A stretch of 64,000 bases of DNA, from IMG/VR virus record IMGVR_UViG_3300029288_000119, positions 29,503 through 93,502 of that record; one strand, written 5' to 3'. Position 1 is the stretch's first letter, and the number at the start of each line of letters is the position of its first letter. A program made the translations under genes and the position numbers. Source of the stretch: a virus. Lineage: Duplodnaviria > Caudoviricetes. A model generated the notes under the pieces. That model saw nothing but the letters and a program-made list of their open reading frames with translations. It did not search any database and was not told the DNA's origin. Shown piece by piece: positions 1,853-52,710 of the stretch.

Positions 1853-2026
1853 TTATTCATATGCATTAATACCAATTTTTATTTGTGGATATCCATCCAC
1901 CGCTACGTTTCCTTCTGTCGAAGCCACAATTTTTGTTTTACCAGATTTAGATTTGCCAAATCTTTTAGTCAAATCAATTTCAATTACTAGAATATGATCT
2001 TTACGTTTCATTGTTATGTTTTTCAT
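1853..2026 (-). CDS. small conserved-looking hypothetical protein (beta-rich, SKSGKT motif)
   Basis: Start refined to ATG 2026, which overlaps the upstream TAA (TAATG); LVIEIDL..GKSKSGKTKIVAST.GN. Confidence 0.6.
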   Translation of the reverse strand: MKNITMKRKDHILVIEIDLTKRFGKSKSGKTKIVASTEGNVAVDGYPQIKIGINAYE

Positions 2027-3285
2027 TAGATTATGTGTGTTCTCCAGGGTTTCCAATGATCATATGGTGGCTTCCCATAGCTTTGAATAACTTCTTGAAT
2101 TTTCTCATCCCAGGTCGAAATCATTTTATCAAAATTAAAATGTTGTACTGTCCATTCGCGGGCAATTTGACCACGCCGTCTACATTCTTCACGACCCAAT
2201 TTATAAAAATATTCAAGAGATTCAACAACCTGTTCATGTGATACTCTATCTTCAGCAATTGTGTGAATTTGTTGTGATCCTACATATGTTATTACTGCTG
2301 GTTCTAATGAAATTCCCCAACGATCCTCTTCTTTCATTTCCGGATCAATTTGATCTTGAAGACCACCAGTTTTATTATTGATAGTGCAACATCCGGCATT
2401 TCTTGCTTCTAATGCGCTTAGTCCAAAGCCCTCTGCATAGGCGATGTTTAGTGTTACATCAGCTATATTATATAAAATATTCAACTTTTCTGGCGGTATT
2501 TTATCAGTAGAAAACATAACACAATCCTGAGCATTAAATTCATTCATAACTTCTACGAGATTTGGTCCCTCCTGATCACCAGGATTACAATGCATAATGA
2601 GTTTTATTTTTCCAGGATATTTATCGGCCAGCATTTTTGTTGCATAAATAACATCTGATGGATTTTTTCTTCTTGCATTTCTATTGTTCCAAAATATAAC
2701 AAATCTGTCAACATTATCTTTCCCGAGAAGCATCTCTTTGTGTTTTATAATTTCCGCTTCCGACAATGGTTTAAACAGATCGTGTGGAACGGCATGTGGA
2801 ATATATGCGGATCTAGTTTCATGTCCAAGTTTGGTAACACAATTGTGGGTCAATTTCGAAATGCAACCAAGGAACGTTGTCGATCTATAAAAATCATTAT
2901 TAAATTTTGGTGGCGGATAATTGTCCCATATGTGATTATAAATTATCGGACATTGATTGAGAATTTCATCGGACATTTCATATAGCCAAACCCAAAAGCG
3001 AGGATCTGTAAAAATAAAAAGTGCATCTGGTTTTTCGCTATCAATTAACATTCTAAGAAACATCTTGTCGCCGAAACCATCTTTGGGAAATATTACACAA
3101 TCATCACCCCATGGGTCTACTTTTATGGGGGTATAGTTAGGATGCTTTACTGCCCCTCCGACCATGCGAAGGGTATATCGTCCGGTGCGTAGTAGCCCTT
3201 CAGCGATATAGCGCATTTGTGTACCGACTCCTGACGGCACAAGCATAATATCACTTAAACACACCAACTTAGTTTTTTGTGTCAT
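2026..3285 (-). CDS. GT-B glycosyltransferase (GT4-like)
   Basis: PSGVGTQ N-terminal motif, NRNARRKN, AEGFGLSALEARNAG (EX7E), GGLQDQ. Confidence 0.85.
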   Translation of the reverse strand: MTQKTKLVCLSDIMLVPSGVGTQMRYIAEGLLRTGRYTLRMVGGAVKHPNYTPIKVDPWGDDCVIFPKDGFGDKMFLRMLIDSEKPDALFIFTDPRFWVWLYEMSDEILNQCPIIYNHIWDNYPPPKFNNDFYRSTTFLGCISKLTHNCVTKLGHETRSAYIPHAVPHDLFKPLSEAEIIKHKEMLLGKDNVDRFVIFWNNRNARRKNPSDVIYATKMLADKYPGKIKLIMHCNPGDQEGPNLVEVMNEFNAQDCVMFSTDKIPPEKLNILYNIADVTLNIAYAEGFGLSALEARNAGCCTINNKTGGLQDQIDPEMKEEDRWGISLEPAVITYVGSQQIHTIAEDRVSHEQVVESLEYFYKLGREECRRRGQIAREWTVQHFNFDKMISTWDEKIQEVIQSYGKPPYDHWKPWRTHII

Positions 3286-23028: not shown

Positions 23029-23295
23029 TTAAACTTGAGAATGAGGAAACAGATCTTTAAGTTGACCATATCTATCTTTAGTGGCTCTAACTCGTCTGTT
23101 GAAAGCAACAACCCAACTGTCGTTCATTAGCAGATGTTTTTCGGTCATTCTTTCAAAAAATCGATAGTCATCTTGTATTTTATCATATTCTTCATCAAGA
23201 AATCCTACCAATTTTGTGTGGGCAATATAAAACCTTACATTTAATATTAAACTTGCAACCAATAATATAGATATAATGATTATTGTTATTATCAT
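23029..23295 (-). CDS. small membrane-anchored protein
   Basis: N-terminal hydrophobic helix MIITIIIISILLVASLILNV. Confidence 0.55.
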   Translation of the reverse strand: MIITIIIISILLVASLILNVRFYIAHTKLVGFLDEEYDKIQDDYRFFERMTEKHLLMNDSWVVAFNRRVRATKDRYGQLKDLFPHSQV

Positions 23296-23939
23296 TTTAT
23301 TTTTGGGTGTGTTGATGATACTTTTACGTGTCTTTTTATTTTGGCATAATCTTCTAAGATATCAACAATTTCTCGCCAATTTTTTACCCTTATGATTTTA
23401 TCTTTTATGTCGTTTGGTAAATCACGATTATAAATATGATCGAACACTATTACTTTCTTCCCAGATTTTATAATATTTTCAATCGTGCTTGGTTTATCCT
23501 CGATATAAATATCACAATCTACTTTTTCTTTTTCCGATGTACAATACATTTGATCATATTTAATTTTATGGATTTTGAGCCATTTTACCGTATCCTTTAA
23601 CAGATCATCAGTTGCTTGGTCTGTAACAATATTAATATCATATCCAATGGCTCTTAGTCTCGAAATTGCTTCTTGAACATAATCATAGGTAGGAGCTTTC
23701 ACCATAACTTCTGAATGATGATCATAAATCCAAAATTGGTTAATTTCTTCTGGAGACAAATTTTTGAATGATTTTGTGATATTATAAAAGCGAAAATCTT
23801 GAGTATTTGTCCTTTCATTACCTAATACATCAATTTTGACAGCAGGAATGTGCTTTTTAAATGTTGTAATTATTGAAGATATAAAATTTCTGAGACATCC
23901 GTCTACATCTACGCTAAGCCTTGGCAATTTATTTTCCAT
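23292..23939 (-). CDS. HAD-family 5'(3')-deoxyribonucleotidase (NT5C-like)
   Basis: SVDVDGCLRNF, IVT, K, IYIEDKP, FDHIYNR, RVKNWREI. Confidence 0.85.
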   Translation of the reverse strand: MENKLPRLSVDVDGCLRNFISSIITTFKKHIPAVKIDVLGNERTNTQDFRFYNITKSFKNLSPEEINQFWIYDHHSEVMVKAPTYDYVQEAISRLRAIGYDINIVTDQATDDLLKDTVKWLKIHKIKYDQMYCTSEKEKVDCDIYIEDKPSTIENIIKSGKKVIVFDHIYNRDLPNDIKDKIIRVKNWREIVDILEDYAKIKRHVKVSSTHPKIK

Positions 23940-26990: not shown

Positions 26991-28277
26991 TTATCTATGA
27001 TTCAAAAGCCCCAACTTTTCCAAATTATCAACTGATAAAAATACACTATCATCAATATTTTTCCACGTCCCAAGAAATAGTCCGGAGAATTTAATTTTGT
27101 AAGTTTCGCACATTTTTCTGAATTCTGTCGTAAAAATATTTTTAATTAACCACGAAATAACCTTCGGTGTTATTACTTCCTTAGGTGTTCTTTTCCCTTT
27201 TACAGCGGAGTCAACAAAATTCATAAAATTGATACTTAAATATATGTCGTCCCCAGTATTATTATAAATCATTGATTCAAAAAGATTTTCTTTTGAGAAT
27301 GTATAAACTCTTCTAGGAAGTTTAGATAGTGACGTTAAAATTGCTGGATCTTTGGTAATGTCTTCCCCACATTGTTTAGAAATTTCTTCCCATGTAATTT
27401 CTTCTTGATCGTTATAACATCCACCAGAGTCGCCTTTGATAATTTCCCTATCCATTTCTGGTGTTTGTTGCCACTTATCCCACGTTAAAATTTCGCCAGT
27501 CTTCTTGTTAGTGTATTTGTTCGAATTAACACGTATTGGAAATGAACGATAATTAAGAATAATTGGACCGACAGTCCATGGTGGTAACATGGAATCATCA
27601 AGAAACGCGGCAACAGAACAATTCCTAGATGTTGTTTTTGGCCAAAATTTACTATATAAACTAAGTTGCCAACCCTGAGCAATTTCACCAAGTATCGATT
27701 CACCATTAATCAGACGGTTTATTATTTTTTCTTGTGTATTTATTAAATAACTCTCAAGACCGGATATATCTTTTGCTATTATCGCATCTTCTCTACGTAA
27801 TAATCGGCGTGCTCTACTACTACCCACTCCATGAAGTGTAGACCCTATTTTTAAATTGATACAATCTCTGTTCTGTTTTTTGTTCCCGTCAAAATCAACC
27901 AGACCCTTTTCGTAATCAACGTCTGTATCAGAAACAATCGCGCAATTTGGGTGGATTTTTATTTTGTCTGGATTGAAATGATATTTATCTATTTCATTTA
28001 AAAAAGTGCGCGTAGCAAATACACAACCCGGTGACAAATATTGTTCTTCATAATCATTTAAAGAAGTAATACTACTTAAACATTGATGTACAAATTCGCG
28101 ACCATCATCATGAATTATTGTGTGTGCTGCGTTCTCCATAAATGTATTAACGGCTGATTTTGTGTGGTCTTGTTTAAAATGTTTCCAAACATAAGCACCG
28201 CGAGATCCTTTTGCAGAACTACCAGCACCACCATCAAGAACAACGGTAATTTTCCCCGGTTTAAAGACTGGCTGCAT
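26991..28277 (-). CDS. purZ: PurZ-like adenylosuccinate synthetase homologue (2-amino-deoxyadenylosuccinate synthase type)
   Basis: DGGAGSSAKG (Ser at PurA Asp13), NAAHT, IGSTLHGVG, EIAQG..FWPKTTSR, RSFPIRV, DQEEITW, TSLSKLPRRVYTFS (Leu at PurA Arg303), INFMNF in place of PurA TKLD. Confidence 0.75.
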   Translation of the reverse strand: MQPVFKPGKITVVLDGGAGSSAKGSRGAYVWKHFKQDHTKSAVNTFMENAAHTIIHDDGREFVHQCLSSITSLNDYEEQYLSPGCVFATRTFLNEIDKYHFNPDKIKIHPNCAIVSDTDVDYEKGLVDFDGNKKQNRDCINLKIGSTLHGVGSSRARRLLRREDAIIAKDISGLESYLINTQEKIINRLINGESILGEIAQGWQLSLYSKFWPKTTSRNCSVAAFLDDSMLPPWTVGPIILNYRSFPIRVNSNKYTNKKTGEILTWDKWQQTPEMDREIIKGDSGGCYNDQEEITWEEISKQCGEDITKDPAILTSLSKLPRRVYTFSKENLFESMIYNNTGDDIYLSINFMNFVDSAVKGKRTPKEVITPKVISWLIKNIFTTEFRKMCETYKIKFSGLFLGTWKNIDDSVFLSVDNLEKLGLLNHR

Positions 28278-30800: not shown

Positions 30801-31124
30801 TTATTGTGGTGGTTCACCGATAATAATTTCTACAATGCCAGCTTCTTTTGCGGCCTTAGTACAGTCATTGCAAGCATATGTATGTCCAACAACATATAAT
30901 TTTCCACCATTTGCTTTATTACCTGCGGACGCAATTGCATTTATTTCAGCATGTGCTGATTGTTTGCAAATTGACTTGCACAACTCATAGCCCTCACCAG
31001 TTTTCATACCAATGCGTGGGCAAATTTTTTGCGGATCGTGACAATAATTTGTAGAAACAAATTTACATCCATCCACTGCTATTATCGTTGCAATGACAGT
31101 TTGTTTTGCACATGGACCAATCAT
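30801..31124 (-). CDS. dCMP/cytidine deaminase-like protein
   Basis: C..CPR..C..HAEINAI..ACNDC. Confidence 0.8.
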   Translation of the reverse strand: MIGPCAKQTVIATIIAVDGCKFVSTNYCHDPQKICPRIGMKTGEGYELCKSICKQSAHAEINAIASAGNKANGGKLYVVGHTYACNDCTKAAKEAGIVEIIIGEPPQ

Positions 31125-31453
31125 CTATTGTCTCCGCTTCCACTAAGAACACCACGCTCCTTACGTGAATTTAATTTCAGCACATTTTCTTCCATTGCCA
31201 ATTGCAGTGATATACCAGTTTCTTCACAAATTCTACTAAGATAAAATAAACAATCACCTACTTCGCCGATAAGTTCTTCTCTCTTTTTATCAGTTATTTT
31301 ACAATCATCATCCCTTATGGTTTTTTTGATTTTCCCACAAAGCTCCCCACATTCGGAAGCCAAACCAAGAGCCACATATTCTATTGCCCGATTTTTTGGA
31401 TAAATACACACACTTTGCGTCCATTCCTGATATTCTTTTAAATTATAACCCAT
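31121..31453 (-). CDS. MazG-like nucleotide pyrophosphohydrolase
   Basis: LGLASECGEL..KIKK..EVGDCLFYL..NVLKLNSR..GSGDNR. Confidence 0.85.
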   Translation of the reverse strand: MGYNLKEYQEWTQSVCIYPKNRAIEYVALGLASECGELCGKIKKTIRDDDCKITDKKREELIGEVGDCLFYLSRICEETGISLQLAMEENVLKLNSRKERGVLSGSGDNR

Positions 31454-32208: not shown

Positions 32209-32412
32209 TTATTTACTCCGTTTGTTAATCATTTGGTCAAATAATTTTTTGTCATCCTTCGGAATATGTTTTTCAATCCACTCTCTCAAAGCTTCATCAG
32301 CGATATCTTTAACCATTCTTTTATATTGAACCGCCGCCAATCGAACTACCGAATAGAGATTTTCGGACACCCTAATCATTTCATCTTCTTTTCTGGTTGG
32401 CTTGTCTATCAC
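32209..32412 (-). CDS. ribbon-helix-helix DNA-binding protein
   Basis: MIRVSENLYSVVRLAAVQYKRMVKDIADEALREWI; GTG start at 32412 after GAAAGGAG. Confidence 0.55.
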   Translation of the reverse strand: MIDKPTRKEDEMIRVSENLYSVVRLAAVQYKRMVKDIADEALREWIEKHIPKDDKKLFDQMINKRSK

Positions 32413-32462
32413 AATACTACTCCTTTCCAATACCAAGAAACCATTTCAATAATAATTATTTT

Positions 32463-33416
32463 ATGGAACAAAAATTACCACCACAAGAAAATGAAACCAT
32501 AGAAGAAAAGAAATGTAAAGTAAGTGGGATATATTTGATTAGAAATTTGGTGAACAATAAAATTTATATTGGATCTGCTGTAAATATTAAAAATAGATGG
32601 TATCGTCACAAAAATCAACTAACAACAAATAAACACAAAAATCCTTATCTCCAAAGTGCTTGGAACAAATATGGAATTGGGAATTTCTCTTTCGAAATTG
32701 TCAGTAAACTTCATTTTATTGACAAAAACAAAGAACTGTCAAAACAACACATTCTTGCTAATGAACAAATCTATTTAGATCTTTATGAAAGTTATAAAAG
32801 GGAAAAGGGATACAATATTAACAGAATAGCCGGGAATAGTCTAGGACTTAAACATTCCGAAGAATCTAAAATAAAAATGAGGGAATTTCAGAACAGACCG
32901 GAAGTAATCGCAGCCAAAAGAAACAGAATACCATGGAATAAGGACAAACATTTGTCAAAAGAATGTATAGAAAAAATGAGGAACAGAACTCCGTGGAATA
33001 AAGGCAAGCACATGTCCGAAAAAACTAAAGAAAAATTAAGTGAAATAAATCGTGGCAGCAAAAATCCTAGATATGGTAAATATAATGGACATCCGATATC
33101 AGAATCAACAAGAAACAAATTATCTATTCTTCTTAAAGGTAAGAAACCATGGAACAAAGAACTTCGTGGTATAATACATCAGTCGGCTAAAGCCAGAGAA
33201 ACAAATAGGTTGGCACATTTAGGATCAAAAAACCACATGTATGGCAAGTCGCCTTCTACAGAAACAAGAAAAAAATTAAGCATAAAAAATAAGGGTCAAA
33301 TACCATGGAATAAGGAACAAAAATTATCAGAAGAGCACAGAAAAAAGATTGGCGAAAAAACAAGAGAAAATCATCGCAAATTGGGGCATAAAACAAGAAT
33401 TCCAAAAGAAAAATAA
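32463..33416 (+). mobile_element. free-standing GIY-YIG homing endonuclease with NUMOD3 repeats
   Basis: SGIYLIRNLVNNKIYIGSA..RWYRH..LQSAWNKYG; repeated PWNK / S.ETR.KLS. Confidence 0.9.
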
Positions 33417-33527: not shown

Positions 33528-36500
33528 TCAGGCGACAATCCTGAAAGTTCCAAACTTCATGTTTGAGTAACCCCATTGATCTTCATATGAAATATCCAAA
33601 ATTATAACAGAACCCTCCTCAATTATTGAAGCATCAAAACTACTATCCATATTCCATGGCCACAATTTTATGGGATGAGAATTTGTTCCATCATTTATTG
33701 TGACGATATGGTATTTTTTGCCAGACTTTGTAAGTTTATCTACAATTTTTTCAACATAACCACCAACACAACCGGATCGATCAATATCATTAAATTGCTT
33801 AATTCCATTACGTGCAAATACAGTTTTTATTACTTCAAATTCATCAGATAAAATTTGATGCAAATCGTAACCAAGATAAGTTTTATACAATTTACTTTTT
33901 TCTTTTTTATTTAATTCTCTATTCTGATTACTATCCAAAATTTGATAAATTTGTTCTTCTGGAACTTTTGACTTTTTGCCCCGTTTTTTATTCTCTAGCA
34001 ATTCCTCAACGAAAGCACAACAACTTTTCCTTGTCCAGCCAAATTCATCAAAAGCTCCAATTCCAGCAAGAATATTAATACCTTTTTTGTTTAACTTAGA
34101 CCAAGACATAGAAAAGAACGACCTGAAATCATTAATATTTTTTTTATGAATTTCTAATTCTTCATAGGCTTTAGGTCCGAATCCTTTAGCTAAAACTAAA
34201 CCCAATCTTATGTTTCCATCCTCCGGTTCACATTTGTATCGTGATTTTGTTACACTAAATGGAAGAATTTTAATGTTATGTTTTTTCGCGCTCATCATAT
34301 ATCTGCGCAACTTGTCATCGTCTTCGGTCCTGCTTATTAGACACGTGTAAAATTCTACCGGATAATAATACTTCAACCAAAGACACATTACTGTTATATA
34401 ACCGTATGATAAACCATGTGCTCTATTGAATGAATAACCTGTAAAGTTAAGCAAATAAAGTAGCGTTTCCTGTTTTTCTTGTTCCGCTAATTCTGGATGC
34501 GTAATTTTTATCTTTTCGTCGTATGCTTTTAAAAATTCATCAAGTTTCGGTCGATCTTTTCTCTCTTGATCAAGATTTTGTAGATCGAGTCCATTAACCC
34601 ATTCTTTACGGAATCCATACTCAAATGGTTTTCTCCATTTATCTGCTTCACCTAGGGAAATTCCCAAGACTTCCGCTACACATTGCATCGTCTGTTCTTG
34701 GTAAAGAATTACACCATAAGTCTTTGCCACATATTTTTGGAAAATTTTTGGAACATCAACTTTTTTAGTTAGATCATTTTTTGATTCCGCATATTGATAG
34801 GCCAGACCACCTTGAAGGGCTGCTGGTCTATAAAGGCACGAAATTGCCACCACATCCTCAAAAGATTGTGGATTTACGTCACGTGCAAGTTTATTAATTC
34901 CAAAACCATCCATTTGGAATATTCCGGCATTTTCATAATCTCTTACTGTTCGATAAATATTTTCGTCTTCTAAATCAAGATGATAAATTTTGTCCATTAA
35001 ATCAATGTTTTTCTTTTCCCTGATCATGTTTACCGTATCTTTAATAATTGACACAGTATCAAGTCCAAGAATATCAAGTTTCAATATTTTAAGATCACTA
35101 AGATATTTTTTTGTGGTGCCTTCACTAAATGAAGCAATTACTTCACCACCAGTCCTTTGAACTGGTATATAGTCATAAATTGGCCCATCAAAAATAACCA
35201 CACCAGCAGCGTGTTTCCCAAGATGTCTAATTTTTCGATAAAGAGAGTTCGCAAGAGGAAGAATGTCTTTATTTTTGTCTACAAATTGTTTTATATCTTC
35301 ATTATTTTCGCACAAGCTTTTAAGATACTCTTCAATATTGTCATTAAATTGAACTGGAACATCTTCTTCAATTTCTTTTGTAACTTTATTTAATAAACCG
35401 TCGTCTTCTGACCTATTAAATACTCGACATAGATCCCGTAAAATCCCCTTACAATGGAATTCAGAGTAAGTTGGTACGTGGATAACCGAATCTTCACCAT
35501 ATTTAACACGAAGGTAATCCTCAATTTCCTGTTTTCTGTCACTGTCAATATCGACATCAATATCAGGACTACTTATCCTTTCAACTTGAACAACATCTTT
35601 ATATTTTTTAACTTTTCGTTGTGGTTTAATTCCACCAATTATTTGATCGCCATTCTCGCCGTCACCTGAATCGTCATAATCTTCTTCGACACGCAAAATT
35701 GATGATGCCAAAAATCTTTCAAACATAAGATCGTGTTTTATCGGATCAATTTTCGTAATTTCCAACACAAATGAAACAAGGCATCCCCCTGCAGAACCTC
35801 TTGCTGGACCAGACCAAATTTCACTGTCTTTTATAAATTGAAAAATATCCCAATAAATTATAAAATAATCTGCATAATCGGCAGCACAGATTACTTTCAT
35901 TTCGTATTTAAGTCGATCAGCATACTCTTTTGTCTTTTCTCTTGGAATTTCCCCAGACTCTATTTTGGCGGCGAGTCCTTTTACACACAATTGCTTAAAA
36001 TAATCATTAACATTTTTATATTTTTCGGGAACTTTCACTTTCGGAAATTTCTTTGTTGTAGTGTCAAACGAAAAATTGCATTTATCGGCAACTTCATTTG
36101 TAAGATCAAGCCACGAATCTATTTGCGATGCATCATAATTAAAACCAAATTCCTTGTTAAAATCATGGAAATCTTGACGAGAACAAATAAATGATTTTCT
36201 AACTGACGCAAATGGACTTTTTTCGGGGTGCTCTTCAATTTCTTTTATCGTATTCTTCCGGATAATAAGTTTAAGTGCATCCTGCGTTTTAATATTTTCT
36301 TTATTTGGATAATGTGTGTCATTAGTAAGAATAAATTTCTCGTGTCCAATGTCTTTTCCAAGTTTAAGAAGTTTCTCGTTACAAACTTTTTGTTCATTAA
36401 GCTCATTAAAAATCAATTCAAAATAAAGATCATCTTTAAAAAACTCTTTTAGACGAATGGCCATTTTATAGGCTTCTTCATCCTGATCTTCTAAAAAGAA

Positions 36501-36935
36501 TTTGTTAATAATCCCACCAATACAAGCGGTAGATATCGTCAAATGTCCAGGCTCGATAGCAAACAAATCATCAAACAAAATTATCGGTTTATAATAATAG
36601 GTTTCTTTGTTCGCTTTATACAGCAATTTACAAATTTGCCGGTATCCAATATCATTCTTAGCAAGTAAACAAGCATGATAGGTTTCACGCTTTACTTTGC
36701 CATCTTCCCCCTCCTTTTTTAATTGTGACGCACAATATGCTTCAACCCCGCACAAAACCTTGACATCTATCGCCCTGCCCTCTTTCCATGCTTCATATAT
36801 ACCACTGCTCGCCCCATGATCGGTTATGGCGATTGCTTTGTGGCCCAATTCTTTTGCCTTCGTCACTAGTTCCTTTGCTGAACTCAGTCCATCCCCGAGA
36901 GAGTAATGCGTATGATTATGGCAATGGACAAACAT
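33528..36935 (-). CDS. dnaE: DNA polymerase III alpha subunit (family C, with PHP domain)
   Basis: HCHNHTHYSLGDG, AITDHG, NDTHY, GPARGSAGG, PDIDVD, GKHAAG, KLDILGL, YSFNRAH; start refined to ATG 36935. Confidence 0.95.
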   Translation of the reverse strand: MFVHCHNHTHYSLGDGLSSAKELVTKAKELGHKAIAITDHGASSGIYEAWKEGRAIDVKVLCGVEAYCASQLKKEGEDGKVKRETYHACLLAKNDIGYRQICKLLYKANKETYYYKPIILFDDLFAIEPGHLTISTACIGGIINKFFLEDQDEEAYKMAIRLKEFFKDDLYFELIFNELNEQKVCNEKLLKLGKDIGHEKFILTNDTHYPNKENIKTQDALKLIIRKNTIKEIEEHPEKSPFASVRKSFICSRQDFHDFNKEFGFNYDASQIDSWLDLTNEVADKCNFSFDTTTKKFPKVKVPEKYKNVNDYFKQLCVKGLAAKIESGEIPREKTKEYADRLKYEMKVICAADYADYFIIYWDIFQFIKDSEIWSGPARGSAGGCLVSFVLEITKIDPIKHDLMFERFLASSILRVEEDYDDSGDGENGDQIIGGIKPQRKVKKYKDVVQVERISSPDIDVDIDSDRKQEIEDYLRVKYGEDSVIHVPTYSEFHCKGILRDLCRVFNRSEDDGLLNKVTKEIEEDVPVQFNDNIEEYLKSLCENNEDIKQFVDKNKDILPLANSLYRKIRHLGKHAAGVVIFDGPIYDYIPVQRTGGEVIASFSEGTTKKYLSDLKILKLDILGLDTVSIIKDTVNMIREKKNIDLMDKIYHLDLEDENIYRTVRDYENAGIFQMDGFGINKLARDVNPQSFEDVVAISCLYRPAALQGGLAYQYAESKNDLTKKVDVPKIFQKYVAKTYGVILYQEQTMQCVAEVLGISLGEADKWRKPFEYGFRKEWVNGLDLQNLDQERKDRPKLDEFLKAYDEKIKITHPELAEQEKQETLLYLLNFTGYSFNRAHGLSYGYITVMCLWLKYYYPVEFYTCLISRTEDDDKLRRYMMSAKKHNIKILPFSVTKSRYKCEPEDGNIRLGLVLAKGFGPKAYEELEIHKKNINDFRSFFSMSWSKLNKKGINILAGIGAFDEFGWTRKSCCAFVEELLENKKRGKKSKVPEEQIYQILDSNQNRELNKKEKSKLYKTYLGYDLHQILSDEFEVIKTVFARNGIKQFNDIDRSGCVGGYVEKIVDKLTKSGKKYHIVTINDGTNSHPIKLWPWNMDSSFDASIIEEGSVIILDISYEDQWGYSNMKFGTFRIVA

Positions 36936-36939
36936 GTAA

Positions 36940-37878
36940 TCACCCGATCCCATTAAAAATGGCTTGTTTTCTTGCCAGCGATATGGTGTTGTTGTTATAT
37001 AACACATTAGTTATTCGTCGGAATTGATGTCTACCACCATATTTGAAATGATATATCACACCCCTTTGCGTTATTTTAGTCTTCCTCAAATTACACATTT
37101 TCATTAACCATTTCTGCGCACCAATGCAAAACCGCCTACTCGCTAATAACGAAAATGCTGGCCACTTGGAATGATTCATTATTGTGCCATCACCATCGAC
37201 GGTGCCGCGAAGGAAATGCCTTATTAGGTGTTTTGGAACAATGTTGGTGGATGGCCAGTTATAGTCAATATATGTTTTATTTGGCAAACACCCCTTGTTA
37301 ATTATGTCTTTAACCATCTTTTTTGAAAAAATCCTTAAGCGGCAACAACATGACGGGCCACCAAACCCGCTTTTATTGATAACATCTTTGATTTCATAAT
37401 TGGTTTTTAGTGCCTTTGCTATATTCTCTAATTGCCCGCGATCTCCCCTTTTTAGACCGATGGCTATACAATAACATCTTTTCTCTTCGTCATAAATAAC
37501 GCATCCATCTGCATAAATAAAACCTAAAATATAAGCTTTCTCTTCTGTATCAATAACTTCAAAAAATGACTCATCAATATAAAACCGTCTATGCCGCATC
37601 GGGATCTCATTTTTATATAAAACATCTGACACTCTTCCTAGAGCAATTTGATTAATTCTTGCTACTCGCCTTGCGCTAATTCCAGATTGATATTGACCAA
37701 CAATAGTATTAATAAGGTCATCATTCATTAATTTGGGGCGTCTAATTTCAACGTCATTCTTGTGTAAATAGGTTCTAATTGTTGTATCGGAACAATTAAG
37801 CCATTTGGCCAATTCCTGTATGCTAATGCCATCTCCATATCTTTTAATTAAATCTGTTATCACATTATTCGAAAACAT
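36940..37878 (-). mobile_element. free-standing LAGLIDADG homing endonuclease
   Basis: EKAYILGFIYADG and HFLRGTVDGDG; N-terminal HTH. Confidence 0.85.
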
Positions 37879-38084
37879 GGACCTTGACCCACCGTGCCAT
37901 GATCTATTTCGTGTAACATGGCCACAATTTCAAAATTTGTTATGAAATCTTTGTTGGGATCTATATGTGAAAAATATAATCTCGGTTCCCACGTATATCT
38001 ACCTTTATTGCTTGCTGCCGGGGTCATACCATATCGTTTAATTTTATTTACCAAAGAACCCAATGTCACATGATATAAATTCAT
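37860..38084 (-). pseudogene. truncated Tpt1/ART-fold gene (N-terminal half only)
   Basis: LYHVT..NKIKRYGMTP..PRLYFS matches the C-terminal domain of 13868..15757 but ends at the homing endonuclease. Confidence 0.45.
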
Positions 38085-38659
38085 TTATTGTTGAATTTTC
38101 CGTCTTTCCTGACTGCCAACCCCCAAGCATCCCAATTCTCGACGCGCTCTCTTGCAAATAATTCTATTTTTGGAATATCACCATAAAGTTGAGTTATTCG
38201 ATCCCTCACTTCATCTGGTTTGCGGGAATGTTCACGCTTTGGAGATTCAACTATTTGATGAACACTTTTTGAAATTCTTTTCAACCTTCCCCTTATACCA
38301 AGCAAACAAATTTCACAGTTATTTCTGGTGTATGACCCCATCCCCCAAAATAATTTGCCTGATTTTTGTCCTTTTTTTACCCACGTAAATGCAATAGTCT
38401 TGTATTGGTATCCCCACGACTCCATCACTTTAAGTCCATCAAGTAATAACGAGGTCGGAACCCACAAAAAAAGACATGAATCTGGTAAAGAAATATCACG
38501 AATTGGTAGACTACTTATTTCTTCTGTTTTCATACATGGATATTTAAATTCACTACCTCTCTTACCGGCAACACATTTATCGCGGAACGACCACGGACAA
38601 TCGGCGTAAATTATGTTATATTTTTTGTTCGGGAACGGAATTATTTTGCTCTTTGTCAT
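38081..38659 (-). CDS. MT-A70 family N6-adenine methyltransferase
   Basis: IIYADCPW (DPPW variant), LFLW, WG..YKT..WVK, GMGSYTR.N.E, REHSRKP, IELFAR..WDAWG. Confidence 0.9.
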   Translation of the reverse strand: MTKSKIIPFPNKKYNIIYADCPWSFRDKCVAGKRGSEFKYPCMKTEEISSLPIRDISLPDSCLFLWVPTSLLLDGLKVMESWGYQYKTIAFTWVKKGQKSGKLFWGMGSYTRNNCEICLLGIRGRLKRISKSVHQIVESPKREHSRKPDEVRDRITQLYGDIPKIELFARERVENWDAWGLAVRKDGKFNNK

Positions 38660-40315: not shown

Positions 40316-40993
40316 CTATTGTCTACAATTACCTAAATAATTTTTAACGATATCATATTTTCGGTCCAAACAAATTGTTTTGCCATCATATAATTTATGA
40401 TATATTCTATCTAATTGTCTATCACCATGATAATGTAAATGAAATATGTTGCCATTCTTCCTTATTTTAGATTTGCTTACTTTACAGTATCGTATTAACC
40501 ATTTTTGTAATGCAACACAAAAATTCTTATTGGCCGACACTAATGAAAATCGCAAATCACGCTTCAGTTTTCTTTTGGGAGCTTTGGATAAATACCAGCT
40601 ACCGTCTCCATCAAAATATCCCCTAATATAATGTCGTATCAAATTGTTGCGAATATACGGTGGTGGGAATACATTTCTAACAGTTTTCGGCGAACAATAT
40701 CCTTTATTCACCAAATCAAACACCATAATTTTCGAACTAATAACTAATAGCGCCGATTTTTTGCTTTCGTAGCGCAATATTCTATTGCCACAAATGGAAT
40801 TAACAAATTTAGACAAATGTTTGTCATCTCTGCTTTGTAATTCTATCCGCACACTATATTTGTGACATTTTCTATTACATATGATGGTTCCATCAGCGCA
40901 TATAAATCCAATCCAATAGGCTTTTTCCTCTGTATTTATATTTTTAAAAAACGATTCATTATATGTATATTTTTTACTGCCTATATTTCGCAT
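40316..40993 (-). mobile_element. free-standing LAGLIDADG homing endonuclease
   Basis: EKAYWIGFICADG and HYIRGYFDGDG. Confidence 0.85.
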
Positions 40994-42783
40994 AATCCGT
41001 CCTTACAAGAATCAATACTTTGATTGGCCTCCGTATTTTCCTTACTTCTTTCTTTCCATAGCTTTTTAGCTTCCTGTAGTGACAACGGTGTTATTGGTTG
41101 ATTATCTCTGCTTCCAAGTGGATACATGGTCAAACCTTTTAATTCCGGAAAATATTGTTTTATTAATTTCTCCACTTCATTTTTTGAATGTTTATCTTTA
41201 TCTATTAATATTGTTTTTGAAATTGACTGATCAACATTTTCTTGACATATCTTTTGGATTTCAAAATGTGTTTTTAATGGAATCTCATTAAAAGACTCAA
41301 AATGCGATACGTCTTTTCCTTCTGCCATCAATTTCAAAAATATTGGGTGAAAAATAATTTCCTCCTTCATTTTGTCTTTATTTTTCTTGTCATAAAATCT
41401 TCTCTTATATGCTGGGCCGAAAATTGGTTCGATACCAGATGAACAATTACCACAAACCATGCTTATGGTTCCAGTAGGGGCTATACTCAACAAATTTGCA
41501 TTCCTGGCTCCGTGCTCTCTAAGTCTCATTTTCACACTATTTTTTAGTGTTTTAATAAAGCCACTTTTCATAAATTGTTCTTTATCATATACTTGGAACG
41601 TTCCTTTTTCTACAGCAAGATACGTACTCGTCTCTACTGCTTTGTTTTTTATAAAATCAAAAACATGTCCTATTATTTTTAATGATTCTTCAGAAGCATA
41701 TTTTTGATTCATAAGCAGTAACATATCATGTAATCCAGTAATTCCGAGTCCAATTTTTCTGGTTTTTATTGATTCTTCTTCAATCTCTTTTAGTGGGTAT
41801 TGTGTTATAGATATGATGTTATCTAAAAATCGCACCGCCACTCTTACTGCATAATCAAGCTTATCCCAATTTATTTTTCCATTATTAACAAATCGTGACA
41901 AAACAACACTGCCTAACACGCAACTTCCGAATGGATGGCTTGATAATTCTCCGCAGGCATTTGTTCCAACAATCTGCTTGTAATAATATAATGTATTCAT
42001 GTCATTCGCATATTTTAAATTAAATAATCCTGGTTCCCCATTTTCATATGCATTTGACAGGATTTTGTTCCATAATTCTCTAGCTTTAATTTTCTTTAAT
42101 TCAGATCCACGCCAAATTAACGAAAAATCCTTATCTTTATTCACAAGATCCATAAATTCCTCAAAATCGGCATTAAAAACTATTGATATGTTCGCATTAG
42201 TTAACTGTTTTTTATCAAATTTGGCATTAAGAAATTCCTCAATGTCTCCATGATCTATATTTAACATCATCATGTGTGCACTACGTCTATTGCCACCACC
42301 ACGAATTTCCTCTGCAATTGCATTAATAATACGCATATAGGCAACAGCACCTTGGGCTTCGCCTCCCGTTCCAGCAACAGGGGTCCCCTTGGGTCTTATT
42401 TTTGAATAATTAATCCCTATCCCACCTCCGACACCAGAAACAATTATTGAGTCAGAGCAGGTTTTACCCCATCCTTCCCGGCTATCTTCGACATCAAGAA
42501 CAAAACAATTAATTAAATTGCTTTTTGGTCTGCCAGCGCCAAACCAGATCCTTCCACCTGGACAAAATCTATTTGACACAATTTCTTTATAAAATTTCTG
42601 TTGCCATTCATCTCTTTTTTCTGGTTTCTCGGCGGCGGCTACGGTTCGTGCAAGCCGCATACACGCTTCATCCCATGTTTCGTTCTCGGTAAACGCATAT
42701 CTCTGTTTAAAAATATCCAGAGATATTCCCTGTGGTTCATATTTATCAATTAATTCTGTTTGATCAATAACTTGATTTGTCAT
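40981..42783 (-). CDS. nrdJ: ribonucleotide reductase, class II (B12-dependent) type
   Basis: PGGRI..NCFVL, GGGIG, TNACGE, CVLGS, IAPTGTIS, DQSISKT, C-terminal CKDGLCEI; no beta subunit nearby; AAGGAGG SD. Confidence 0.85.
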   Translation of the reverse strand: MTNQVIDQTELIDKYEPQGISLDIFKQRYAFTENETWDEACMRLARTVAAAEKPEKRDEWQQKFYKEIVSNRFCPGGRIWFGAGRPKSNLINCFVLDVEDSREGWGKTCSDSIIVSGVGGGIGINYSKIRPKGTPVAGTGGEAQGAVAYMRIINAIAEEIRGGGNRRSAHMMMLNIDHGDIEEFLNAKFDKKQLTNANISIVFNADFEEFMDLVNKDKDFSLIWRGSELKKIKARELWNKILSNAYENGEPGLFNLKYANDMNTLYYYKQIVGTNACGELSSHPFGSCVLGSVVLSRFVNNGKINWDKLDYAVRVAVRFLDNIISITQYPLKEIEEESIKTRKIGLGITGLHDMLLLMNQKYASEESLKIIGHVFDFIKNKAVETSTYLAVEKGTFQVYDKEQFMKSGFIKTLKNSVKMRLREHGARNANLLSIAPTGTISMVCGNCSSGIEPIFGPAYKRRFYDKKNKDKMKEEIIFHPIFLKLMAEGKDVSHFESFNEIPLKTHFEIQKICQENVDQSISKTILIDKDKHSKNEVEKLIKQYFPELKGLTMYPLGSRDNQPITPLSLQEAKKLWKERSKENTEANQSIDSCKDGLCEI

Positions 42784-42794
42784 ACATTCCTCCT

Positions 42795-44138
42795 TCATTT
42801 TTGTTTTTTCACTGATTCCCATAATAATTGAGCATTTTTCTGTTTGGTTGGCAGCATCACGGGTTCGTCACCAATTATTTCAATCTTAGAACGTGATGTG
42901 TCAACCTCAACATTGTATATCATTCCTGACATGCCCGAACGATTTTTTGGTATGTAAAAGCGTCCCATACCATGAGCGATGTCGGATATCGTTCTAGACA
43001 ATGATATAATCGTATCAGAAACTGCAGCTTTTAAATAAGCCTCAGCAATACTTTCCATTGTAATAATATCAGCATCGGCAGCTTCTCTCGTAGCTTGTGA
43101 TGCGGTTAATACCGGAACATCAAAATCAACAGCAATGCCACGTAAATCTTCATAAATAGATTCTAATTCAAATCTTTTATCCTTCTTAGACAATGCCGGT
43201 TTCATTAAATCAGCATAATCAACAATAATCATGTCTGGAATAAAACCCTGCAATTTCATCTTGGCAAGGTGATTACGTATTGTTCCGCATGATGCCTGCT
43301 TTGTTGGATATTCCTTAATGATTAAACGATTTTGTGCATATTTATTAATACGCTCCCATACTTGATCCGGATATTTTTTGAGATCATCAAATGCTATGTC
43401 AGAAAAATTTGAATCATACCTAAGAGCAGTTTTTTGTTCACTCAATTCGAGTGTATAATGTGCAACTTTATATCCACCCTTAATTGCAGATATTCCACTC
43501 TGTACTAATAAGTGTGACTTGCCACGTGTTACACATGCTAGAAATACATGTAATTCTTTTGCTGCGAATCCACCACCATTGTTCATTATTCTATTTATTG
43601 GTTCCCACGGTGTTGGAATAGACTTAATTGCCGATATCTTCATGCGATCATTAAAACTATCATGATTGAAATATTCAAGCCCTATATTCTTATCAAACCC
43701 CAACAGCACGCTTTTTTTGATTACTTCAATTATTTCATCATATTTAGAATAATTTATCATCTCAGCAGCTTTTAATAGAGCTACCTTTAAATTTTGTTTT
43801 CTGCAAAAATCAAGAGATTTATCTTTAACAAATTCAATATCTTCAAATTTCTCTTTTAATATGTTGTTCTTAAATGAGTCAACAAATAATTTTAATTGTT
43901 TTTTTGATATTTCATCCGGGACATCAACAATAAGGGTTTGCAACACATCAATACTTGGAATGTGATTATATTTGACATAATAATCTTTGATTATCTGCAA
44001 TATATCACGATGATGTTTTATATCAACCGAATTAAAGTCAATTATTTCTATAATTTGCTCAGCAAATTGTCTATCTATTAATATTGCGTGAATTAGTTTC
44101 TGTTGAAAATGCTCCCCAAATTCATTGATATTATTCAC
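42795..44138 (-). CDS. replicative DnaB/gp41-like helicase
   Basis: Walker A ACVTRGKS, YTLELSE, IKEYPT, IIVDYADLM, TASQATR, KNRSG. Confidence 0.9.
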   Translation of the reverse strand: MNNINEFGEHFQQKLIHAILIDRQFAEQIIEIIDFNSVDIKHHRDILQIIKDYYVKYNHIPSIDVLQTLIVDVPDEISKKQLKLFVDSFKNNILKEKFEDIEFVKDKSLDFCRKQNLKVALLKAAEMINYSKYDEIIEVIKKSVLLGFDKNIGLEYFNHDSFNDRMKISAIKSIPTPWEPINRIMNNGGGFAAKELHVFLACVTRGKSHLLVQSGISAIKGGYKVAHYTLELSEQKTALRYDSNFSDIAFDDLKKYPDQVWERINKYAQNRLIIKEYPTKQASCGTIRNHLAKMKLQGFIPDMIIVDYADLMKPALSKKDKRFELESIYEDLRGIAVDFDVPVLTASQATREAADADIITMESIAEAYLKAAVSDTIISLSRTISDIAHGMGRFYIPKNRSGMSGMIYNVEVDTSRSKIEIIGDEPVMLPTKQKNAQLLWESVKKQK

Positions 44139-49627: not shown

Positions 49628-50797
49628 CTATTTTGACTCGTTGTATATATTGGTGTGTTTAGAATCTCTAATAAATTTTCTAAGTGATTCAATTCTACTA
49701 AGTGGTCGTTGCAGTCCAGTAATTATGTTATACACTATTATTGAATTCCCGGACTCTTGATAAATACCACGATATACCGTAGCATTTCCAGTTATGTTAG
49801 CTAACGTATCAAATCCATAATTGATAGATTCCGGCAAACCCTGTACAGTATTAAACAAAACATCGCCGCCAATAACAATTGATCCAGCGGCTTTAGCAGT
49901 ATTTAAATCAAATCCCTCTGCAAACAAAGTTTTTTCTAAATTGGCTTTAATTGATGAACCTATTGCGTATTTATCATTGTAATCTTTAACTTTGGTTGCT
50001 CCCATGATGCAGCAACCACCAACACCCATAATTTTGTTATAGTCAGCAGCATCAAAGGTCGTGTATTCCGTGTGTCTCTTTGCCATCGTATTGAACACAT
50101 TAAATAAACCAGCGATGGCTTTGTTAATCGTAGACCAATATTGTGTCATAGTGAGATTCGGATATAATTTAGCCGTTTTGTTATTGTCAACAAATATTAG
50201 TGGCGAAATATTTCCCATTTCTGCATGGTTACAAAGTGGTTCAATAACATTAAGTGCATTTTCCGCGACAACGGATGAAGCACATTCACCATCTTTAGGT
50301 ATCGCGCATATAACACCTATTCTAGAATTCACATTTTCAACACCAATATATCGTAGGTATTTCTCTACTATGCTCAAAAGAACAAAAACAGAACCACCAC
50401 CAGTCCCACCACCAGATCCAATACATACTATAACTCTGTCGCATTTTCCAAAAATTTTCTTCATTTTGTTGATAATATCTTGCTCATATTGTTTTGCAGC
50501 GGCGGCACCTTTAACCATGTCCTTACCGGCACCGTCTTCTCGATCTATTTTCATTAATATTTTCTGATCGTTCGGTACATTAATTTTTGATAGATCCGAT
50601 TCGGCAGTATTTACAACTAGACATTTCTTATATCCAAATGTGTAAAAACTTTCGGCCATGCGACTTCCGGCTTGGCCAGATCCTATAAATGCATATTGAA
50701 TTGCTCCATCATTTTCATTCTTAATACCGGCCTCTTCCTCAGCGGCTTCCGCCATTGCTTTTTCATCAATTTCCGGAATGTCAAACGAATTATTCAT
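49628..50797 (-). CDS. tubulin/FtsZ-family GTPase
   Basis: FIGSGQAGSRM, VNTAESDL, GAGKD, signature GGGTGGG, VDN, T7-like FDAADY. Confidence 0.9.
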   Translation of the reverse strand: MNNSFDIPEIDEKAMAEAAEEEAGIKNENDGAIQYAFIGSGQAGSRMAESFYTFGYKKCLVVNTAESDLSKINVPNDQKILMKIDREDGAGKDMVKGAAAAKQYEQDIINKMKKIFGKCDRVIVCIGSGGGTGGGSVFVLLSIVEKYLRYIGVENVNSRIGVICAIPKDGECASSVVAENALNVIEPLCNHAEMGNISPLIFVDNNKTAKLYPNLTMTQYWSTINKAIAGLFNVFNTMAKRHTEYTTFDAADYNKIMGVGGCCIMGATKVKDYNDKYAIGSSIKANLEKTLFAEGFDLNTAKAAGSIVIGGDVLFNTVQGLPESINYGFDTLANITGNATVYRGIYQESGNSIIVYNIITGLQRPLSRIESLRKFIRDSKHTNIYNESK

Positions 50798-51570
50798 TGT
50801 GTTTTTCCTCCTCCGATGCCTAATCCCTTTATTGCATCATCAAAATCTATCATGCCATCCGGCATGGTAGTAACTGCAGACGGCACACCATTTTTAGATT
50901 CGGGTGTTGAATCTGATTCTTCAATAATTTGTGGTAATTCGATTTCATTTTCTTTGTCGTTAACTTCTTCAGTAAGATTAACCGTTTCTTTATTCTCCTG
51001 TATTACGGACCAAATGTTAGCACAATTCAAAAGATATGTTACATCATTCCCATCGTATGAATTTCTTTTATCATTAATATTGTGTATTGCGAGATACTCA
51101 TTATATGTTAATTCGACCCCATATTTTTGTAATAAAAACAATGACAGTGTTTGTGGCGGTATGTTGTTAAATTTGTCATTTATTTTATAATTGTATCCTC
51201 TCGATTTCCAATATTCGTCATTCCCTATGTAATAACTATCCACTCCATCACCAATTTTTCCAAGATCGTGAAACAGCGATAATATGATTATCGAATCTTT
51301 GTCGCAATCCCGAATTTTTAACCCGTTTGTCAACCCAACCATGCCCTTCATAACTTGTAATGAGTGTCTAGATAATCCACCGGGAAAACATGAATTATAC
51401 TCAGATTTATACGATGCTGGTGCAGAAAAATATAAAGATGCCAAATCACTCATCATAACCGATATATTTTTCCTGCGTTTTTTGTCTAACATGTTAATCA
51501 TTTTAATAACCTTTATATAATTGCTTCTTAGATATTTTAAACGAAACGACAATTTTTGCCAGTCAGACAT
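50794..51570 (-). CDS. HD-domain phosphohydrolase
   Basis: APAS..GGLSRHSL, LFHDLGKIG, EYLAIHN. Confidence 0.75.
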   Translation of the reverse strand: MSDWQKLSFRLKYLRSNYIKVIKMINMLDKKRRKNISVMMSDLASLYFSAPASYKSEYNSCFPGGLSRHSLQVMKGMVGLTNGLKIRDCDKDSIIILSLFHDLGKIGDGVDSYYIGNDEYWKSRGYNYKINDKFNNIPPQTLSLFLLQKYGVELTYNEYLAIHNINDKRNSYDGNDVTYLLNCANIWSVIQENKETVNLTEEVNDKENEIELPQIIEESDSTPESKNGVPSAVTTMPDGMIDFDDAIKGLGIGGGKTQ

Positions 51571-51573
51571 AAA

Positions 51574-52710
51574 TTATGCTCCATTCCTGGAATCTTTTAT
51601 TTCCTTCATTTCGCCATAATTGTGCCCAACACTAATTTTTGAATACATGTTGCACAATTTAGATTGTTCAAAAATCTTTCTTATATTTTTAATATGTAAC
51701 AATTCTTTTTCCGAAATCATTAATATGCCAGCATCATAAAAAGAAAATAATATTCTGGCATTTACATTATTAGATTTGATATAATCATTAACAGCACACA
51801 ATGAATTAAGTAAAGCATTTCTTTCAGTACATTGTAGTATATTATTGGTAATAACCGAATCTGATTGCGATGTTATCAATATTGGTCTTTGATATGTGTC
51901 ATATGTATAAGATCCAATAACATTGTTATCCCCATATAATTTTTTACAAAAAACGTCGCTTAAATAACATTGGCAATTTTGGTTCAATTTTTTTATGTCT
52001 TTGTTTTTGTACTTACTAAATAACATTTTAAATGAATACAATTTTGCGTCATGTCTATCGATATTAAGATCTTTGGCTATTTTAATATATGGATCATAAC
52101 ATTCAGCCAATTTATTGTCGGACAACGCAAGATATAATCTCATCTGACACGCAACATAATCAAACTGAACAATTACATATCCTGATTTTGATATAATTGT
52201 TTTTCTGTCATCATTCGACATGTTGTATATATTAAGATCACTGACTTCAGAAGACGCCAATCTCCCGGTTCTGGTATCTTTAAATTTTAAAAATGATTCA
52301 CCATGAGTGGTATATATCGGTTTTGTTTCCAACTCACGTAACATCATATATTGTTTTTGTCCATAATTGCTATAATATTCTATTGTATTCTTAAATAAAT
52401 TGCTGTTTTTGTTTTTATTATAAAATCCCCACATAGATTCTAAACGATATTCAACCAATTTACGATATATGTGTGATTCAATCAATTGATATTCTTTAAA
52501 TTTTGATTTGTCAATACCAACAGTGTGATACGTTTTCATAATATTAAAATATGATTTATCGTCAACGACACATTCCTTATTCATGATGTTTGCAATATTT
52601 AAAATATCAAATTTATTTATAGAATTGTCTGAAATTTGCTGTGATTCAACAAACTCGTGGCCATCAAACGACAAAAAATTATTATCACTTATTTGCTCGT
52701 AGAAAATCAC
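51574..52710 (-). CDS. truncated family-A DNA polymerase core
   Basis: RTGRLAS, motif A FDYVACQMR, motif B RHDAKLYSFKMLF, NNILQ, motif C FYDA; no recognisable exonuclease domain. Confidence 0.7.
   Translation of the reverse strand: MIFYEQISDNNFLSFDGHEFVESQQISDNSINKFDILNIANIMNKECVVDDKSYFNIMKTYHTVGIDKSKFKEYQLIESHIYRKLVEYRLESMWGFYNKNKNSNLFKNTIEYYSNYGQKQYMMLRELETKPIYTTHGESFLKFKDTRTGRLASSEVSDLNIYNMSNDDRKTIISKSGYVIVQFDYVACQMRLYLALSDNKLAECYDPYIKIAKDLNIDRHDAKLYSFKMLFSKYKNKDIKKLNQNCQCYLSDVFCKKLYGDNNVIGSYTYDTYQRPILITSQSDSVITNNILQCTERNALLNSLCAVNDYIKSNNVNARILFSFYDAGILMISEKELLHIKNIRKIFEQSKLCNMYSKISVGHNYGEMKEIKDSRNGA

Follow-up and report, generated by a model that had tools for sequence, protein, structure and literature searches.

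A putative PurZ-family enzyme of a distinct long-form subclade, encoded on a large phage contig with a DnaE-type replicase

The 64-kb window analyzed here covers positions 29,503 to 93,502 of IMG/VR virus record IMGVR_UViG_3300029288_000119 (Caudoviricetes). It encodes a purZ-like gene whose product is probably a functional N6-succino-2-amino-2'-deoxyadenylate (dSMP) synthase, belonging to a distinct long-form subclade of the PurZ family that is found on large and jumbo phage contigs. We give this reading, which is made from sequence, a probability of roughly 0.7. Judged by its residues, predicted fold, and phylogeny, the gene is a real and conserved member of the PurZ family that carries the substrate-defining residues for deoxyguanosine monophosphate (dGMP), aspartate, and ATP, and is neither an adenylosuccinate synthase (PurA) nor a PurZ0. 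DNA containing 2-aminoadenine (Z), which small phages substitute for adenine by means of PurZ, is plausible in the phage that carries the window (the window phage), while enzyme activity, the presence of Z in virion DNA, and the extent to which Z would replace adenine are matters that we infer from the gene and its context.

26991..28277, minus strand: purZ-like gene of the long-form PurZ subclade of large phages, a single uninterrupted frame of 428 amino acids (aa)

The initial annotation had placed an open reading frame (ORF) with a PurA fold at this position, and the frame is intact. The gene is separated by 21 nucleotides (nt) from the preceding gene and by 7 nt from the next one, and is part of a long minus-strand gene run that includes replication and nucleotide-metabolism genes; promoter and terminator scans performed no better than shuffled sequences. 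The motifs first quoted for the protein are all present, namely GSSAKG (residues 19-24), NAAHT (49-53), RSFPIRV (244-250), TSLS-KLPRR (315-323), and NFMN (350-353). Its landmarks include the P-loop Ser20, the catalytic His52, an insert (251-280) after Val250, the aspartate loop (315-323), and the ATP pocket (N350/F351/N353), followed by a C-terminal extension relative to phiVC8 PurZ.

The protein matches Pfam PF00709 (Adenylsucc_synt) with 46 bits and PHROG 1211, the PurZ phrog, with an E-value of 3.9e-30. The best NCBIfam model is PurZ NF038379 at 126.9 bits, which is below the curated cut-off of 300 bits, followed by the archaeal-type PurA model NF003295 at 102 bits (cut-off 368). Bacterial PurA models score at most 44 bits, the value obtained with the equivalog TIGR00184, for which the cut-off is 395. 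In the Protein Data Bank (PDB), the best sequence match is phiVC8 PurZ (E 2e-24), then Pyrococcus PurA (E 3e-16), S-2L PurZ (E 1e-12), and PurZ0 7VF6 (E 9e-8), while E. coli-type PurA appears only at E-values of about 0.1-0.4. Going by these scores, the match to the PurZ family is far above chance.

Active-site residues were compared in an alignment of the window protein with E. coli PurA, Wayne PurZ0, S-2L PurZ, phiVC8 PurZ, MaF61 ORF141, and 35 clade members, in which clade counts refer to 37 sequences. Residue roles at the substrates follow PMC8342488 and bioRxiv 10.1101/2025.10.22.683976. The window protein keeps S20, H52, Q201, T147, R161, T216, R249, and V250, and these eight positions are invariant or conservatively substituted across the clade (R249 is Lys in four sequences and V250 is Ile in 19). 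Arg161 corresponds to the Arg supplied by the dimer partner. Ser20, at the position of Asp13 in PurA, occurs in 37 of 37 sequences. The aspartate loop, TSLS-KLPRR, opens with Thr315 where PurA has Gly, and is Thr-rich with an R-R pair as in the TTVT loop of known PurZ; the clade consensus is TSLT, the first Thr is found in 36 of the 37 sequences, and Arg322 is invariant. Leu320 stands at the position of PurA Arg303, which contacts the ribose 2'-OH (L278 in S-2L and K267 in phiVC8), and Val250, the residue that crowds C2', is kept and is followed by the insert 251-280 at the same place as the insert specific to S-2L PurZ. The loss of the Arg303 contact together with the retained Val is the pattern of deoxy-specificity. 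The nucleoside triphosphate (NTP) pocket, N350-F351-M-N353, is of the phiVC8 type (N294-F295-x-N297), in contrast to T-K-x-D in PurA and T-M-x-D in Wayne PurZ0; the Phe is invariant and the Asn is present in 34 of the 37 sequences, as in the adenine-specific pocket N-F-x-N/Q.

Some motifs had been noted to deviate even from PurZ, namely GSSAKG, with Ala at S-2L G25; NAAHT, with Ala at S-2L G51; and TSLS where known PurZ has TTVT. The clade itself is variable here (G/A/S, A/S/G, and T/S with V/L, respectively), and in S-2L PurZ these positions contact the ligand through the backbone or a conservative side chain (PMC8342488); any contacts of S-2L G25 and G51 would run through the backbone, as both residues are glycines. 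From the alignment, the aspartate-loop substitutions are conservative. A real difference from known PurZ is that F12/Y21 of those enzymes are Ala in 28 of the 37 clade members, the window protein among them. As far as the alignment can tell, every position that separates PurZ from PurA is PurZ-type in the window protein, and the PurA hallmarks Asp13 (GDEGKG), Arg303, and T/N-K-x-D are all replaced.

An AlphaFold2 model of the window protein, built on 26 clade sequences, has a mean predicted local distance difference test score (pLDDT) of 91.6 and a predicted template modeling score of 0.91. Foldseek searches with this model returned phiVC8 PurZ (also named DgsS) first, with a template modeling score (TM) of 0.85 by target, then S-2L PurZ, Pyrococcus horikoshii PurA, and PurZ0, and the model has the short PurA-type fold of PurZ. 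Residues, fold, and phylogeny therefore agree with the initial assignment of the protein as PurZ-type rather than PurA.

The phylogenetic comparison with PurA, PurZ, and PurZ0 that had been proposed as a check places the window protein inside the PurZ radiation, apart from bacterial PurA and Wayne PurZ0. In a careful IQ-TREE analysis (LG+G4, 81 rows, canonical GDEGKG archaeal PurA not among the rows), the long-form clade is monophyletic (100/100) and comprises the window protein, MaF61 ORF141, and 25 metagenomic sequences, with members of about 415 aa from large phage contigs. Its sister is a 394-aa protein (100/94), and the pair falls within a larger clade of 72 rows (100/97), which takes in S-2L and phiVC8 PurZ and leaves out Wayne PurZ0 and bacterial PurA (100/100). 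This placement within PurZ, rather than with PurA or PurZ0, applies to trees without canonical GDEGKG archaeal PurA; it was unchanged in a quick tree with eight cellular short PurA-like members added. The order of sub-clades inside PurZ is unstable, as two quick trees put different sisters beside the long-form clade.

The family is large. A word-indexed search (E ≤ 1e-5) recovered at least 149 clusters of relatives at 90% identity, mostly 400-450 aa long and on contigs of up to 385 kb, and an exhaustive search of 1.84 billion proteins gave 1210 representatives at E ≤ 0.001. Amongst the best 150 of these 1210 representatives, 35 rows, for the most part fragments, gave no P-loop score; Ser occupies the Asp13 position in 114 of the 114 with a scorable G-x-x-x-K-G P-loop, none has Asp there, and P0241, a cellular short PurA-like protein, has Gly.

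Searching with P0241 also revealed a large family of cellular proteins (P0241, P0321-P0439) that are PurA-like and short (340-370 aa) and whose P-loop is GGEGKG or GSEGKG, not GDEGKG. Some members are annotated as adenylosuccinate synthetase from Archaeoglobaceae, Halobacteriota, or Clostridia metagenome-assembled genomes (MAGs), and in the trees the group is basal to viral PurZ, close to Wayne PurZ0. Within the long-form clade, five forms of about 750-890 aa (P0121, P0124, P0125, P0130, and P0201) contain inteins with LAGLIDADG homing endonucleases, at no fewer than three (≥3) different positions near the NAAH, GST, and TTSRN motifs. A long-form-clade purZ-like gene is also found on the contig L084 (CAVTYW010000027.1), which is 441 kb long and binned in a Pirellulales (planctomycete) MAG; the contig may represent a very large phage or a binning error, and the match spans query residues 4-314 only.

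The proposed mechanism is modeled on the solved PurZ structures. ATP would phosphorylate O6 of dGMP, with His52 acting as the acid, and Ser20, in place of the PurA base Asp13, would leave enough space to fit the 2-amino group. The T-S-L-S-K-L-P-R-R loop would hold aspartate, which would then displace the phosphate to yield dSMP. Host PurB, or in some relatives the phage's own PurB, would turn dSMP into the monophosphate dZMP, host kinases would yield the triphosphate dZTP, and the phage DnaE-type replicase, which had been recognized from the outset and is confirmed by a strong profile match, would insert Z opposite T. The replacement of adenine by Z could be partial because no enzyme that removes deoxyadenosine triphosphate (dATP) was recognized.

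33528..37007, minus strand: DnaE-type (family C) DNA polymerase, the presumed replicase (phrog_405, E 7e-242)

Amongst characterized systems, phiVC8 PurZ (PDB 6FM1/6FKO/6TNH) and S-2L PurZ (PDB 7ODX) are the closest. They share with the window protein the short PurA-type fold (TM 0.79-0.85 by target), the Ser for Asp13, the Thr that opens the aspartate loop, the absence of Arg303, the N-F-x-N/Q pocket, the Val facing C2', and the same major clade of the tree. However, identity to the window protein is 20-25%, and the latter is about 70-85 residues longer, with the insert after Val250 and the C-terminal extension. The phages differ as well: the window phage is large and DnaE-encoding, and its purZ-like gene lies beside none of datZ, mazZ, and dpoZ and shares no synteny with the Z-clusters, whereas the studied Z-phages use a family A DpoZ or a PrimPol.

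PurZ0 of the Wayne/Ghobes type (Arthrobacter phage Wayne; PDB 7VF6) is likewise a Ser-for-Asp13 homolog of PurA in phages that lack DatZ, with DutZ-DmtZ-DUF5664 as helpers (PMC12884076). In contrast to the window protein, Wayne PurZ0 has a PurA-like T-M-x-D motif and occupies a near-root branch outside the 72-row clade. The window protein has a PurZ-type NTP motif, and a model of the relatives' family similar to nucleoside 2-deoxyribosyltransferase (NDT), the family to which DmtZ belongs, found nothing in the record; searches for dUTPase and DUF5664 were not made.

The only cultured member of the long-form clade that was found is the "putative adenosuccinate synthetase" ORF141 of the Flavobacterium phage MaF61 (PQ858689), which has about 30% identity to the window protein. 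MaF61 is a 168-kb myovirus with a contractile tail, and neither this gene nor DNA modification is discussed in the paper that describes it (PMC13269007). The insert after the I/V-R-I motif is much longer in ORF141 than in the window protein, and MaF61 encodes a PurB homolog, whereas none was found in the window record. The archaeal-type short PurA of P. horikoshii (PDB 5K7X/2D7U), the second-best PDB sequence match, has the same compact fold, with a TM of 0.87 by target. It was crystallized with inosine monophosphate (IMP) and GTP according to the title of 5K7X, whereas the window protein has PurZ-type substitutions and scores 127 bits with the PurZ model against 102 bits with the archaeal PurA model.

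The gene neighborhoods of related phages were surveyed by clustering ORFs within 10 kb of purZ across 27 related loci. Apart from purZ itself, genes of the window record recur in the purZ neighborhoods of two loci at most. Roughly half of the 27 loci (e.g., L002:6374-9236; also L004, L006-L015, L017, and L024) contain a module upstream of purZ with the following components.

upstream module of relatives, 13 of 27 loci: MptE-like protein, 333 aa
upstream module of relatives, 13 of 27 loci: NDT superfamily protein, about 200 aa (PF15891, 32.8 bits, above cut-off; PF05014, 25 bits)
upstream module of relatives, 14 of 27 loci: 237-aa protein with no Pfam match
upstream module of relatives, 7 of 27 loci: small zinc-ribbon protein

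The NDT-superfamily gene lies about 2 kb upstream of purZ in the 13 loci that carry it; a profile search of PDB sequences with the 237-aa family gave no match. NDT-family proteins have been linked to Z-DNA before, as DmtZ of the PurZ0 phages is an NDT-family hydrolase and transferase of deoxyadenosine monophosphate (dAMP) (PMC12884076), and one NDT family is enriched on dZ-modified contigs (bioRxiv 10.1101/2025.10.22.683976). The similarity of the relatives' NDT-like family to the NDT domain of Wayne gp53 is weak (hhalign probability 20%).

PurB carries out the step after PurZ, and PurB (PF00206) homologs are encoded by several phages of the clade: MaF61 (ORF149, L001:26544-27899) and two of the five related records (L083 in G001 and L082 in G005). 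The size and conservation of the clade, the inteins at catalytic motifs, the PurB genes of relatives, and the NDT-like neighbor argue for a working pathway.

Several genes of the window had been named as possible helpers of a Z genome, and they are listed here with the deaminase-like gene that adjoins one of them.

31121..31453, minus strand: MazG-like nucleotide pyrophosphohydrolase, 110 aa (common phage MazG phrog_229)
30801..31124, minus strand: dCMP/cytidine-deaminase-like gene directly downstream of the MazG-like gene, 107 aa (PF00383, 29.5 bits)
23292..23939, minus strand: NT5C-type (HAD superfamily) 5'-deoxynucleotidase, two genes downstream of purZ (PF06941, 53.8 bits)
50794..51570, minus strand: HD-domain protein, called gene 235 aa (PF01966, 20.2 bits against a cut-off of 22)
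51574-52710: PolA-like ("mini-PolA") gene, 378 aa (PF00476, 23.6 bits, sub-threshold)

The MazG-like gene is present as described, and its stop overlaps the start of the dCMP-deaminase-like gene by 4 bases. Because this deaminase-like gene abuts it, the MazG-like gene suits a conversion of dCTP to dCMP to dUMP at least as well as one of dGTP to dGMP; its product is a candidate supplier of deoxynucleoside monophosphates (dNMPs). The gene called HAD does belong to that superfamily, more precisely as an NT5C-type 5'-deoxynucleotidase that could shape dNMP pools. The HD assignment is weak, as its score falls below the cut-off, and the "mini-PolA" is a member of a viral family of about 378 aa with only sub-threshold similarity to family A polymerases. 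As helpers, the MazG-like and HD genes do not bear out the proposal, for they do not accompany purZ in relatives: among five related records, one has a clear homolog of the MazG-like protein and two more have weak matches to it, and the HD protein has no homolog in any. None of the MazG-like, HD, NT5C, and PolA-like genes is shown to be part of a Z pathway.

The MazG-like protein gave no alignment to S-2L MazZ, and MazZ is not amongst its PDB matches. The HD protein, in turn, gave no alignment to S-2L DatZ, and DatZ is absent from its PDB sequence and fold matches. When folded (pLDDT 85), the HD protein has the HD domain of the YhaM nuclease as its nearest solved fold, although weakly (E 3e-4, TM about 0.55), and its matches in the ESM Atlas are viral HD clusters with no function attached.

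Several observations weigh against a functional PurZ pathway in the window phage and call for caution regarding Z-DNA. Two concern the enzyme itself, namely the score under the curated PurZ cut-off and the limit that canonical archaeal PurA is missing from the trees. The others concern its partners, which were sought in the record, a 93.5-kb contig without terminal repeats that CheckV estimates to be 39% complete and of which the window is the last 64 kb, and in four relatives. Three of these are 100% complete by CheckV (341, 320, and 150 kb), one is 91% complete (247 kb), and the 341- and 320-kb relatives carry terminal repeats. DatZ/HD_3 (PF13023) was found in none of the five records, and DUF550 (PF04447) gave nothing above cut-off in them, so there is no recognized way to exclude dATP; NDT (PF05014) was found in one of the five. 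The absence of a datZ/DUF550 cluster, as remarked in the initial annotation, thus holds for the available sequence and for the four relatives, and the window phage does not display the Z-cluster of datZ with mazZ/DUF550 and often dpoZ. No recognizable dATP-removing enzyme of another kind was found, in a search that did not include dUTPase (PF00692), DUF5664, or PF12917. PurB was not found in the 93.5-kb record. Neither was the NDT-like module of the relatives, since hidden Markov models of 11 neighbor families gave nothing at E ≤ 1 against the six frames of the record; the module either lies in the unsequenced 60% of the phage genome or is absent from the phage altogether. The window also encodes an N6-adenine-type methyltransferase, which hints that adenine may remain in the phage DNA, and we know of no preference for Z in a DnaE replicase.

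38081..38659, minus strand: MT-A70-family (N6-adenine type) methyltransferase (PF05063, 95.9 bits)

These same points lend some weight to an explanation in which the enzyme is a true PurZ but serves mainly in pool conversion, with an AT-rich phage converting excess dGMP, such as that released from degraded host DNA, into a surrogate of deoxyadenosine, such that Z is partial or variable and dATP is not removed. We consider this unlikely, although it would fit the lack of DatZ, DUF550, or a recognizable dATPase amongst the genes found, the GC content of the window (30-39%), the DnaE polymerase without known Z selectivity, and the MT-A70 methyltransferase. It would also fit the S-2L system, in which the polymerase does not discriminate between A and Z and the exclusion of A needs DatZ (PMC8065100). 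On the other hand, only 39% of the genome has been seen and a gene that removes dATP or dAMP may be elsewhere, and the NDT-like gene beside purZ in about half of the related loci could remove dAMP.

A shift of substrate in the clade, to GMP, dIMP, XMP, or some other purine nucleotide, with a different modified purine or a metabolite unrelated to DNA as the product, is quite improbable. The clade is long-branched, with its own insert at 251-280 (much longer in MaF61) near the ribose-facing Val and a C-terminal extension, F12/Y21 of known PurZ are Ala in most members, and the score is under the PurZ cut-off. Yet PurZ-type residues are conserved in the guanine 2-amino pocket, in the aspartate loop, and in the adenine pocket, the PurA Arg that contacts the ribose 2'-OH is absent while the Val that blocks it sterically is kept, and the clade is nested inside PurZ. 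The suggestion of another modified purine, originally prompted by the deviating motifs, finds no support, as those motifs vary within the clade and the specificity residues are PurZ-like. An ordinary PurA that boosts AMP synthesis from IMP and GTP as an auxiliary gene is barely credible and already strongly disfavored, despite the PF00709 match and the name "adenylosuccinate synthase" given to homologs in some sources, since Asp13, Arg303, and the T-K-x-D guanine motif have each given way to other residues, the equivalog models for PurA give ≤44 bits where their cut-offs are near 400, and a 100/100 branch separates the clade from bacterial PurA.

In the literature searched, accounts of Z-genomes and PurZ are confined to small sipho- and podoviruses or to seven groups of phages from NCBI, and the pathways depend on DatZ, MazZ/DUF550, or DutZ/DmtZ, often with a family A DpoZ; no paper in that search ties PurZ to jumbo phages, myoviruses, or DnaE. 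A PurZ lineage conserved among large phages that use a family C replicase and lack the known helpers would extend Z-DNA, or at least the synthesis of dZTP, to a new part of the virosphere, and raises the question of how adenine is excluded, if at all, in such phages. We give even odds to the broader proposal that DnaE-replicating large and jumbo phages make 2-aminoadenine DNA without DatZ, MazZ, or DpoZ, by combining a long-form PurZ with another means of removing adenine nucleotides. If true, Z-DNA would be far commoner amongst big phages than one would expect from the sipho- and podoviruses studied so far. MaF61, as a cultured member of the clade, makes Z content testable.

The window phage was originally described as a jumbo myophage. 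Its size is an estimate, based on the 93.5-kb record, the CheckV completeness of 39%, and the presence of an identical purZ-like protein on a 143-kb contig, and the assignment as a myophage relies on a single baseplate-wedge match. A megablast search with 20 kb of the window found no match amongst 50,697 phage records. Other recognized genes of the window include a DnaB-like helicase, a UvsX-like recombinase, a single-stranded DNA-binding protein, the ribonucleotide reductase (RNR) large subunit, an exonuclease, and the baseplate-wedge protein. An FtsZ/tubulin-like gene overlaps the stop of the HD gene, which itself directly follows the PolA-like gene (3-nt gap). Homing-endonuclease-like genes are located beside or between dnaE and the RNR gene.

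49628-50797, minus strand: FtsZ/tubulin-like protein, as in PhuZ/TubZ-type jumbo phages (TIGR00065, E 4.5e-15)
40981-42822: RNR large-subunit ORF, matching only positions 188-779 of a 975-position PHROG profile; it may be split or truncated
32397-33416 (plus strand), 36940-37878 (minus strand), 40316-40993 (minus strand), and L120:3116-4330: homing-endonuclease-like genes (GIY-YIG type, phrog_4645)
2026-3285 (minus strand) in the window, and L120:11002-12576 and L120:13224-14480 upstream: three glycosyltransferase-like genes

The 29.5 kb upstream of the window adds ligase, RNA ligase, polynucleotide kinase, MazG-like, deaminase-like, and glycosyltransferase genes to the record, which consequently carries two copies each of the MazG-like and dCMP-deaminase-like genes.

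L119:3113-5077, upstream of the window: NAD-dependent DNA ligase
L119:12620-13678 and L119:16703-17797, upstream of the window: RNA ligase and polynucleotide kinase, a tRNA-repair-type pair
L120:4314-4862 and L120:9470-9877 (genome 19313-19861 and 24469-24876): second MazG-like gene (phrog_229) and second dCMP-deaminase-like gene

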